From the IMG/VR virus record IMGVR_UViG_3300045988_049160: DNA of 25,860 nucleotides, one strand, 5' to 3'. This DNA is from a virus (lineage: Duplodnaviria > Heunggongvirae > Uroviricota > Caudoviricetes). Each line of letters starts with the position of its first letter. Within the stretch, counting starts at the first letter, position 1. The notes beneath the pieces were generated by a model. That model was not told the origin of the DNA and did not search any database. It saw nothing but the letters and a program-made list of their open reading frames with translations. Position numbers and translations under genes: made by a program. Shown one piece after another: positions 2,153 through 24,325 of the stretch.

Positions 2153-2169
2153 TTACCTTTGCGGTAAAT
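2153..2169. promoter_or_regulatory. Putative operator ATTACC-TTTGC-GGTAAA (copy 3)
   Basis: Directly downstream of a -35/-10-like pair (TTGATT 2124-2129, 17-bp spacer), in the leader upstream of the antirepressor gene. Confidence 0.4.
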
Positions 2170-2434
2170 TTACATCGCACTCCTCTTGTGCCATAGTAAT
2201 CGGGCACTGGCAAAATCCAGTGCCGGGATTGGTCTCCCGGATTACTACAGAGGCACATATGCCGCATAAGCGGTTTTTTTATGTGTAAAGCGCACCTATT
2301 CTATGGTGGGCTGTGTGGGGGCACCGAAAGGTGCGCCGGGTTCCTTTGTAGCCGGTAAGACCAACTCTGCACAGTTCACCACCATCTGATTGGTCTCAGC
2401 GGTGGTGATTAACCTAACTACAAAGGTGATCGCT

Positions 2435-3127
2435 ATGAATACCAAACCTTCCATCTTTTCCTTTGAGTCATCCTGCCAGATCCGTATGTTCATGATTGAC
2501 GGAGAACCTTGGTTTGTCACCAAAGATGTGTGCAATGCTTTGAATATTGATGTTACACAAGCGAGAAAACTTGATAAAAAAGGCTGGAACAAAAAGGGGC
2601 TGTATTCAATACAGACCCCTGGTGGAATACAAGAACTATCCATCGTTTCAGAATCAGGTCTCTACATCCTTATTCTGCGTTGCAAAGAGGCAATGACTGA
2701 GGGAACGAGAGCATTCAGATTTCTTGAATGGGTTACAGGTGAGGTTCTTCCTCAGATCCGCCGCACCGGAAGTTACATTAAAAACTCGCTCCCGCAGGAA
2801 GAACGCATAAAGATGGTTGCCGACCAGGTAGCCAACGCCACGGCGTCAGCAGTAATGCAGGCAATGAAGATAGAGAACAAAACCTACAGTGCCCCGCTGA
2901 AGCCCGGCTACCGCAGCCTGATTCATTCGCCGTCTGGTGTTCTCGGCCTGACGGAGAACTCACTGCTGATGAATCTGCTGAACCAGTTACAGGACGACGG
3001 GCACGACGTATCGGGCGCGGCGGCGGAGCTGACCACCATGTTCTGCTACATCGTCGGTGTGAGCAAATGCCTGCGTGATATCCAGACCCACGCGGAGTAT
3101 ATCAACGACAAAGCAGGGTTCTTCTGA
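2435..3127 (+). CDS. Phage antirepressor-like protein with Bro-N N-terminal domain
   Basis: ATG at 2435 with AGGTGA RBS; N-terminal region FESSCQIRMFMIDGEPWFVTKDVCNALNI...GGIQELSIVSESGLYILILRCKEA matches the remembered Bro-N/antirepressor pattern; C-terminal domain duplicated in the 1031..1288 protein. Confidence 0.6.
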   Translation: MNTKPSIFSFESSCQIRMFMIDGEPWFVTKDVCNALNIDVTQARKLDKKGWNKKGLYSIQTPGGIQELSIVSESGLYILILRCKEAMTEGTRAFRFLEWVTGEVLPQIRRTGSYIKNSLPQEERIKMVADQVANATASAVMQAMKIENKTYSAPLKPGYRSLIHSPSGVLGLTENSLLMNLLNQLQDDGHDVSGAAAELTTMFCYIVGVSKCLRDIQTHAEYINDKAGFF

Positions 3128-3211: not shown

Positions 3212-3228
3212 ATTACCCGATTGGTAAA
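3212..3228. promoter_or_regulatory. Putative operator ATTACC-CGATT-GGTAAA (copy 4)
   Basis: Lies between a TTTACA -35-like hexamer (3170-3175) and the RBS/ATG of the 3249 gene. Confidence 0.4.
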
Positions 3229-20687: not shown

Positions 20688-20704
20688 ATTACCTTTCAGG
20701 TAAC
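20688..20704. promoter_or_regulatory. Putative operator ATTACC-TTTCA-GGTAAC (copy 5)
   Basis: About 90 bp upstream of the gp6.7-like start, in the region where the structural operon must restart after the plus-strand moron insertion. Confidence 0.35.
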
Positions 20705-21025: not shown

Positions 21026-21102
21026 GTGGCATTAGCTCAGCTGGACAGAGCAACCGCTTTCTAAGCGGTTGGTCGCAGGTTCGAATCCTGCATGCCACGC
21101 CA
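21026..21102 (+). tRNA. tRNA-Arg (anticodon UCU)
   Basis: 77 nt with CCA; acceptor stem GTGGCAT/ATGCCAC, D-arm GCTC/GAGC, anticodon stem CCGC/GCGG with loop TTTCTAA, T-arm GCAGG-TTCGAAT-CCTGC. Related to but not identical with remembered E. coli argU. Confidence 0.85.
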
Positions 21103-23682: not shown

Positions 23683-24275
23683 TGATTGCCATCCTGACGT
23701 TCTTTCAGTCTCTTCCTGGCTGCCGCTATGCGATCAGCAATTGTCACATTCACATTAACATCCAGGCGTTCTTTGAATGCGTTGACGTCGACGTGCTTAC
23801 CAATCAGTTCGAGGTTCTTCACCTTGTCAGGCCATTTAATTTTTTTGAGGATTGTCTCTATCGAATCCTCGTTCATGTTCATGATGGTCGATGACAGATC
23901 AAAGCCACTAAGCGTAGTGCGCCAGATTTTCGGCCACTCGCGGATTGGCTTAAGGCTCCCATCGTCGTTGAGGATGTCGATCACGTCCATCTGGTCGATC
24001 TCCACCAGGCGCATGAGAACGTAATCAGCACTGACGCGCATTCGTTTGTTGCGCTCTTCCATCAGCTCGGCAATCCGTTTTTGAATGCGTTCATCGCGCA
24101 TCATGAGACTGGCTTTAACTGCCGCTGTATTTGGGGAGAATCCTGCGTTAATCGCTGCCTGAGTCTGGTTTTCAGGCGTTTTGATGTATGACTGGCAATA
24201 AGCCTCCTGCATTGCTGTTAGTGGCTTAAATTGCGTTGATTTGCGTTTATAGGTTTTAGGTTCAGCAGGCATCAT
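23679..24275 (-). CDS. Terminase small subunit (putative); start at 24275 or 24272 rather than 24353
   Basis: Directly upstream of and coupled to terL; helix-turn-helix-like segment TQAAINAGFSPNTAAVKASLMMRDERIQKRIAEL typical of small terminases. The track start would place a terminator hairpin and low-complexity repeats inside the coding sequence. Confidence 0.55.
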   Translation of the reverse strand: MMPAEPKTYKRKSTQFKPLTAMQEAYCQSYIKTPENQTQAAINAGFSPNTAAVKASLMMRDERIQKRIAELMEERNKRMRVSADYVLMRLVEIDQMDVIDILNDDGSLKPIREWPKIWRTTLSGFDLSSTIMNMNEDSIETILKKIKWPDKVKNLELIGKHVDVNAFKERLDVNVNVTIADRIAAARKRLKERQDGNQ

Positions 24276-24325
24276 AACCACCGTGGTAATAGTTACCGTT
24301 GTGGTAATAGTACCATGCAAAATAA

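Follow-up and report, generated by a model that had tools for sequence, protein, structure and literature searches.

An IsrK-like RNA and a C4-type antisense RNA in the leader of the Bro-N antirepressor gene of a phiV10-like Escherichia coli phage

The ant locus and the elements of its leader

The window, by which we mean the entire 25.9-kb stretch of DNA analysed here, belongs to a phiV10/epsilon15-like (Uetakevirus) temperate podophage of Escherichia coli and is 97-98% identical, across ~80% of its length, to phiv142-3, to the O157 typing phages 9 and 10 and to phiV10. It carries the antirepressor-type gene ant, which is preceded on the same strand by a structured leader whose elements are collected in Table 1. 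On the minus strand, a divergent gene at 1311-2039 encodes a 242-aa protein with an N-terminal hydrophobic segment and a Cys-rich C-terminus, for which Pfam returned Stc1 as the sole match, at a weak, sub-threshold 21.5 bits. ARAGORN found no tRNA or tmRNA in the leader; the only tRNA found was a tRNA-Arg with anticodon TCT on the plus strand at 21026-21102, which is annotated in the O157 typing phage relatives too.

The segment 2100-2500 (401 bp), which spans the leader, has a match in 467 of 5,426 complete E. coli genomes, 66 of them at an identity of at least 99%, and is 100% identical to prophages of E. coli strains PAR and MS20653. In the RefSeq E. coli genomes, the sole annotation of this segment is a 'BRO-N domain-containing protein', and the isrK and C4 RNAs are unmarked. 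The phiV10 record is likewise without annotation of either RNA and lists ant as a 'putative anti-immunity protein'.

The operator named in the preliminary description of this DNA is a palindrome of the form TTACC-N5-GGTAA at 2153-2167. The pattern TTACCNNNNNGGTAA has seven matches in the window compared to 0.41 expected, and none of 100 shuffled sequences reached seven. Copies are located at 940-954, 2060-2074, 2153-2167, 3213-3227, 20689-20703, 24275-24289 and 24293-24307, most of them in intergenic DNA beside gene starts, with the copy at 2060-2074 facing the divergent gene. Judged by their sequence and placement, the seven palindromes look like a putative operator set of one repressor. From the promoter-like site next to the leader, transcription is predicted to start at ~2204, which is 7 nt past the end of the site. 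Its -10 element, CATAGT (2192-2197), is matched in the alignment by TATAGT, annotated as the -10 of the phage P1 promoter P1c4 (former P51b), and the -10 of a second promoter-like site, at 2124-2153, aligns with that of phage P1 P2c4.

The statement in the preliminary description that the leader holds no credible ORF with a ribosome-binding site stands: the only small ORFs in the leader encode 25 aa (2281-2358) and 28 aa (2303-2389), and no purine-rich Shine-Dalgarno sequence (SD) was seen by eye upstream of either. A coding leader peptide was considered and rejected, as the small ORFs lack an SD and the frame resembling orf45 of Gifsy-1 is not preserved in the window.

We searched positions 1800-2800 against Rfam. 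The 5' part of the leader matches the isrK family over the entire model and, when folded in isolation, forms exactly three hairpins, the last of which is the intrinsic terminator (z = -2.72). Hairpin 1 had been placed at ~2203-2222 and is present on the plus strand with a correction of 1 nt. Hairpin 2, previously drawn at ~2223-2240, is also found, but with five pairs only: its proposed sixth pair, C2223-G2240, would reuse C2223 of hairpin 1. The weak stem followed by T7 that had been noticed at 2261-2280 was recovered by our terminator scan; the stem comprises 5 bp and is weak, at -7.2 kcal/mol. In 83 of 94 distinct homologous leaders, a hairpin with a T-run separates b1 from C4, and the terminator stems are weak across homologues as well (~-7 to -9 kcal/mol). 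Weak stems of this kind would fit a leaky terminator.

The IsrK-like part furthermore carries two short elements, a1 and b1, which form a second target pair upstream of C4 on the same strand and are placed as a1 and b1 are in phage P1. Hairpin 2 holds a1 in its loop, at the place that corresponds in the alignment to the a1 annotated in phage P1. The position of b1 is the one at which, in homologues, 8-9 nt complementary to the C4 loop of the same locus are found. In the window, b1 and the C4 loop form 9 pairs, one of them G-U, with a best exact match of 5 nt and a duplex energy of -14.1 kcal/mol, and the in-window significance of this match is weak (p = 0.057 with G-U allowed). The c4-a1b1 motif (RF03163) matches 2191-2243 with 39.9 bits, which is below its gathering score of 46.7.

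Table 1. Elements of the ant leader and the gene that follows it, with positions in the window
Feature	Position	Strand	Remarks
Operator-like palindrome TTACC-TTTGC-GGTAA	2153-2167	n/a	Directly 5' of the -35 of the leader promoter
Promoter-like site TTTACA-17 nt-(TG)CATAGT	2169-2197	+	Consensus scan 9/12; extended -10 TG
IsrK-like short RNA	2204-2280	+	RF01394 (isrK), 74.7 bits (gathering 50), E 5.9e-16, model 1-77/77
Hairpin 1, GCACTGG-CAAAAT-CCAGTGC	2204-2223	+	
Hairpin 2, CGGGA-TTGGTC-TCCCG	2224-2239	+	Five pairs
a1, TTGGTCT	2229-2235	+	Loop of hairpin 2; exact 7-nt complement of a' (2358-2364)
b1, CTACAGAGG (RNA: CUACAGAGG)	2245-2253	+	Imperfect upstream copy of b2
Terminator stem GCCGC-ATAA-GCGGT with T7	2261-2274 (stem), 2274-2280 (T7)	+	Terminator scan
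C4-type antisense RNA	2299-2386	+	RF01695, 78.6 bits (gathering 45), E 1.7e-15, model 1-87/87
C4 stem P1	2304-2320/2365-2381	+	17 bp; encloses hairpins P2 and P3
C4 hairpin P2, GCACC-GAAA-GGTGC	2321-2334	+	
C4 hairpin P3	2335-2356	+	12-nt loop
b', CCTTTGTAG (= CCUUUGUAG)	2343-2351	+	P3 loop; exact 9-nt complement of b2
a', AGACCAA	2358-2364	+	Single strand between P3 and the 3' strand of stem P1; exact complement of a1 and a2
C4 3' ACC(A)	2381-2384	+	
Hairpin displaying a2	2376-2408	+	Folds in isolation
a2, TTGGTCT	2390-2396	+	Exact 7-nt complement of a'; loop of hairpin 2376-2408
b2, CTACAAAGG (RNA: CUACAAAGG)	2418-2426	+	Overlaps the ant SD AAGGTGA (2423-2429); 8 nt before the ATG
ant, regulated target	2435-3127	+	230-aa Bro-N antirepressor-type gene; Pfam Bro-N E 1.8e-13, 51.4 bits (cutoff 25.6)

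The C4 RNA and its co-varying targets

The 3' part of the leader is a member of the C4 family. Aligned to the 77-nt C4 of phage P1, the mature RNA is predicted to comprise 2305-2383. The minimum free energy (MFE) fold of the C4 part is the Rfam structure (-43.6 kcal/mol, z = -4.48), and the GCACC-GAAA-GGTGC stem reported earlier at ~2320-2335 is its hairpin P2; the 17-bp stem that encloses it and the complementarity of the C4 loop to the ant ribosome-binding site had both escaped the first reading. G2305 pairs with C2380 and ACCA follows at 2381-2384, a sequence compatible with release by RNase P. This acceptor-like stem with its ACCA resembles a tRNA 3' end and may mimic one. Processing of phage P1 C4 by RNase P was reportedly described by Hartmann et al. 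in 1995.

C4 displays two elements that are exactly complementary to the ant mRNA, namely b' to b2 on the ant SD and a' to a2 upstream of it. When the 57-nt leader was shuffled, the probability of the b'/b2 match was p = 4e-4 and that of the a'/a2 match p = 6e-3. The b' of the window corresponds to the b' of phage P1 C4 (UCACUAAC), and its a' corresponds both to the a' of phage P1 C4 (CUGUCAA) and to the segment in Gifsy-1 in which C159 and C162 were mutated. The hairpin that displays a2 has as its 5' strand TCACCACC, which shares six positions with the 3' strand of the C4 stem, and the two helices are mutually exclusive there. Among 63 homologues, 11 of the 12 pairs of this hairpin change on both sides, and 89.7% are paired compared to 74% after shuffling. 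The hairpin may link the processing of C4 to exposure of the target.

The whole leader (2204-2450) folds with -100.5 kcal/mol (z = -5.74), an energy that none of 200 shuffled sequences equalled. In this full-leader MFE structure a1 and b1 pair with a' and b' in cis over a long range, and b2 and the SD are mostly open. We also observed that in the leader taken without C4 (2384-2440), GGUGGUGAUU (2402-2411) can pair across the ant SD and AUG (-15.3 kcal/mol, z = -2.45).

We compared the module across homologues by scanning viral contigs with the conserved core of P3, the second C4 hairpin. This returned 120 loci, from which 98 distinct leaders were extracted, with 31 loops, 16 tails and 41 combinations of the two. 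The search pattern prescribed P3 and part of the tail, so that nothing can be concluded from the invariance of P3, and the sample of the family is skewed towards 12-nt loops; Gifsy-1, whose loop has 8 nt, escaped the pattern and was retrieved on its own. One chance match without a C4 stem (L038) was left out of the alignment (A1) and kept as one row among the 98 loci. Downstream, the distance from the loop to its complement is fixed, with the complement in every case ending 7-10 nt ahead of the start codon of the first gene, and the complement of the tail lies 6-8 nt past the C4 3' region. Furthermore, complements of both loop and tail recur at fixed distances upstream.

Since MAFFT misaligned the b'/b2 columns, we used an alignment-free test, in which a match of at least 7 nt was scored between each C4 element and either its own leader (cognate) or the leaders of RNAs differing by at least 3 bases (non-cognate). 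Across the 98 loci, the loop matched its downstream region in 86% of cognate and 2.4% of non-cognate comparisons, and the tail did so in 96% and 0.6%, respectively. Upstream, the corresponding values were 91% and 2.5% for the tail and 62% and 3.8% for the loop. The targets change together with the C4 elements, and a1 and b1 track a' and b' through many specificities. In the 63-sequence alignment, 11 of the 17 pairs of stem P1 and all 5 pairs of P2 change on both sides; 89.6% of C4 helix cells are paired, compared to 74.6% in shuffled alignments and at most 44% when the partners are slid. Entered as pseudoknot brackets on the MAFFT alignment, a'/a1 and a'/a2 have 72-82% of their cells paired, a value that includes the shift of ~18 sequences by a 1-nt difference in the tail. 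The preliminary description had made conservation of structure among homologues a point on which its proposal could fail, and helices and complementarities alike prove to have undergone compensatory change. The leader belongs to both RNA families, takes up their fold, and carries complementarities to the ant transcript that co-vary.

The gene that lies under b2 varies among the relatives and is a small icd-like ORF, a Rha-type regulator or a Bro-N gene. In some contigs (L017, 9730-9760 and 11042-11072; also L104), two C4 modules with different loops and tails, and hence of different specificity, lie ~1.3 kb apart, and each precedes a similar 120-aa gene.

A close pair for comparison is provided by phiV10 (L002), which is ~98% identical to the window elsewhere but, at 1500-1775 compared to window positions 2204-2434, differs in the a'/b' specificity elements: its a' is ACGCCAA with a2 TTGGCGT, and its b' is CCUUUUAG with b2 CUAAAAGG. 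Its ant is also shorter than that of the window. The immunity module is mosaic between the two phages, which, by the sequence of these elements, are probably heteroimmune at the C4/ant level. As a' and b' define the specificity of immunity and those of phiV10 differ, neither phage is predicted to cross-repress the ant of the other.

We also followed the reading frame that begins at the conserved AUGG (2303 in the window) in 35 leaders filtered at 90% identity. This orf45-like frame (frame 0) is open in 23 of the 35, compared to 14 and 11 for the other two frames, and in 17 of the 35 leaders it is in frame with the downstream gene and open into it. In many relatives, among them L003, L004, L017 and L022 of a Stx-phage-like group, the frame runs stop-free into the downstream gene. 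An AUGG frame that runs into the gene could be a translated extension or a by-product of constraints on the RNA.

A model for the control of ant and its alternatives

We consider it very probable that the leader is a module of the P1/P7 immI type, in which C4 serves as an antisense translational repressor of the Bro-N gene ant, derives from the same transcript as its target, and is accompanied by an IsrK-like RNA. The suspicion that a structured leader might act as a riboregulator or small RNA for ant is borne out by the isrK and C4 matches in Rfam and by the loop complementary to the ant SD. The analogy to P22 that was drawn with it is apt as to function; in architecture, the full-length alignments with phage P1 and Gifsy-1 place the leader with the same-strand P1/P7 immI type instead. 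Both RNA families are known and curated, their arrangement here is known as well, and the leader is one more, unannotated example of the pair that looks functional but is ordinary.

From the comparison with these relatives we infer how the leader would be transcribed and processed, how repression would arise, and in which direction a1 and b1 would act. Transcription from the promoter at ~2169-2197 would first produce the IsrK-like RNA with its three hairpins. The weak intrinsic terminator at 2261-2280 would stop part of the transcripts, and read-through would extend into C4 (~2305-2383) and on to ant. As in phage P1, C4 would then be cut from the transcript, RNase P making its 5' end, and a stable antisense RNA would accumulate. 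Its b' and a' would pair with b2 and a2 on the ant mRNA, and with b2 covering the SD, ribosomes could not start, which would keep the antirepressor off in the lysogen; in phage P1, Rho then cuts transcription short as well. The IsrK-like RNA, carrying a1 and b1, could itself bind C4, either within the same read-through transcript (in cis) or as the separate short RNA (in trans). As b2 lies on ant's own SD, direct occlusion of the ant ribosome-binding site is the simplest reading.

Several observations speak against this antisense model. The leader promoter is only a 9/12 match to the consensus, b1 is imperfect in the window, and icd, through which C4 of phage P1 acts, is absent. Moreover, the MFE structure of the unprocessed leader pairs a1/b1 with a'/b', so that slow processing could leave C4 self-sequestered. 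Finally, mutation of a1 in cis in Gifsy-1 caused translation to go up, not down (PMC4825925), and a model in which a1 and b1 are pure decoys does not predict this.

An extension of the antisense model, which we advance tentatively and regard as rather unlikely as a whole, is that the IsrK-like RNA is dedicated to imitating the ant target and so titrates C4 as an 'anti-antisense' RNA. How efficient the leaky terminator is would determine how much mimic is made relative to repressor, and thereby the antirepressor switch, and the hairpin at 2376-2408, which competes with the base of the C4 stem, could couple release by RNase P to exposure of a2. What the data show in this respect is limited to the tracking of a'/b' by a1/b1 and the covariation of both alternative helices. 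In Gifsy-1, the short IsrK supplied in trans raises translation of the antirepressor more than 100-fold (PMC4825925), and by analogy this activation fits a mimic that titrates C4. If true, the idea would unify the descriptions of phage P1 (an antisense RNA acting in trans) and Gifsy-1 (a switch in cis and trans) and would give a1 and b1 a function.

The leader is homologous to that of Gifsy-1 over its whole length and could accordingly operate as the switch proposed there, in which an inactive fold of the read-through transcript is refolded by short IsrK, the start of an ORF in the C4 region is exposed, and ribosomes are delivered to ant. The long-range a1b1-a'b' pairing in the MFE structure of the full leader is structure A of the Gifsy-1 paper (PMC4825925), and at 2303 the window has the conserved AUGG with which orf45 begins. 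However, whereas orf45 of Gifsy-1 has 45 codons and a stop overlapping the anrP start (AUGA), the frame in the window ends after 28 codons at UGA 2387-2389, 45 nt short of the ant ATG, which makes translational coupling of the Gifsy-1 type unlikely here. Furthermore, no SD precedes 2303 by eye, many relatives have this frame closed or shifted out of register (it is open in 23 of 35), and ant has a strong SD of its own, which lies under b2. We hold a Gifsy-1-type switch to be improbable in the window. Still less is to be said for a plain transcription attenuator, in which only the terminator at 2261-2280 would matter, the downstream structure would be inert and no RNA would act in trans: it would account for the conserved terminator-like hairpin and T7, but it leaves unexplained the 9-nt and 7-nt complementarities in the SD region, their compensatory change over 41 specificities and the covarying C4 helices, and we judge it very improbable.

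Control by a minus-strand small RNA that spans the ant start and pairs with the ant ribosome-binding site, as sar does in P22, could begin at a minus-strand promoter-like site, GTGACA-17-AATCAT (2520-2492), which points to the ant start. This site is nevertheless a 9/12 match, which is at background level (5 sites in the region vs 2.1 +/- 1.5 expected), the terminator scan detected no minus-strand terminator-like site in 2170-2434, and no minus-strand match in the leader reached the gathering score of an Rfam family; such an RNA is highly improbable. The imperfect b1 and the absence of RNA annotation from RefSeq and the phiV10 record could also be expected of a decayed, non-functional immI remnant. 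Against decay, no helix has been lost, nor has the complementarity of a' to a1 and a2 or that of b' to b2; ant retains an intact ORF with its Bro-N domain, and 2100-2500 is conserved at no less than 99% identity in 66 complete E. coli genomes, leaving a chance close to negligible that the module is a relic.

The main value of these data lies in annotation, given that the prophage is present in hundreds of E. coli genomes in which control of the antirepressor is invisible in the RefSeq and phiV10 records. The known workings of such modules are unchanged, and the comparative data strengthen the case that the upstream a1/b1 copies have a function.

Relation to known immunity systems

The c4 antisense RNA of the P1/P7 immI region, with its a1, b1, a2 and b2 targets, is said to have been described by Citron & Schuster in 1990. 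The phage P1 record (NC_005856) annotates promoters, a1, b1, C4, a2, b2 and icd, and labels a1 and b1 'putative'. The window leader aligns end to end with phage P1 immI, with the -10, a1, b1, C4, a2, b2 and the start codon colinear and ant ATG 2435 aligned with the icd ATG. Both have, on one strand, the order promoter, a1, b1, hairpin with T-run, C4, a2 and b2, and in both b' lies in a hairpin loop, a' in the single strand that follows and a2 a few nt past C4. The b1 element is imperfect in both, and that of phage P1 is also one position short of b2. Phage P1 C4 is described as processed from a transcript that carries its own target, pairing with a2/b2 and blocking translation of the first gene (PMC12197685). 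In contrast to the window, where icd is absent and b2 lies on the ant SD, phage P1 has icd between C4 and ant1/ant2, with b2 blocking icd; its operator is the asymmetric C1 operator rather than a TTACC-N5-GGTAA palindrome; and its a'/b' sequences, and hence its specificity, differ.

The isrK-orf45(STnc1160)-anrP region of the Salmonella prophage Gifsy-1 is likewise colinear with the window leader, with a mean column identity of 79% across 306 aligned columns, and has the same three Rfam matches; in both, the isrK terminator precedes the antirepressor gene. In Gifsy-1, part of the transcripts stop at the IsrK terminator, those that read through give a translationally silent mRNA (Hershko-Shalev et al., 2016; PMC4825925), and the compensatory mutation pairs G28A/C162U and G31A/C159U restore the silent state (PMC4825925). 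G28 and G31 map to a1 (UUGGCGU, +26 to +32), and C159 and C162 map to a' (ACGCCAA, +158 to +164). Thus, pairing between a1 and a' has been established experimentally in a homologue. Gifsy-1 differs from the window in its hairpin-3 loop, of 8 nt compared to 12 nt, and in its neighbours antQ and isrJ, which are absent in the window.

The CI RNA of satellite phage P4, with seqA and seqC, is also a small RNA that is cut from the leader of its own target operon and has copies of the target on both sides (PMC4825925), and the Gifsy-1 authors regard IsrK as a structural homologue of seqA (PMC4825925). P4 CI, however, acts by premature termination of transcription of replication genes and not by occlusion of an antirepressor ribosome-binding site (PMC4825925). 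P22 sar is an antisense RNA that blocks initiation of antirepressor translation in an immI region, as proposed for the window (PMC12197685); however, sar is encoded on the opposite strand across the ant start, whereas the antisense RNA of the window lies on the same strand, upstream of its target.

A report of 2010 found the C4 and c4-a1b1 motifs to be widely distributed among Proteobacteria and phages. Nor is the direct isrK-C4-BRO arrangement new: it has been annotated and discussed for the APSE phages of Hamiltonella, whose DNA is only ~70% identical to the window. There, antisense regions match the non-coding region upstream of the BRO gene (PMC7313666); the loop is labelled a' and the tail b', the reverse of phage P1 usage, and a second match lies in the DNA polymerase gene. 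As in the window, isrK and C4 are annotated in APSE (LR794147) directly upstream of the BRO-N gene, without an intervening icd.
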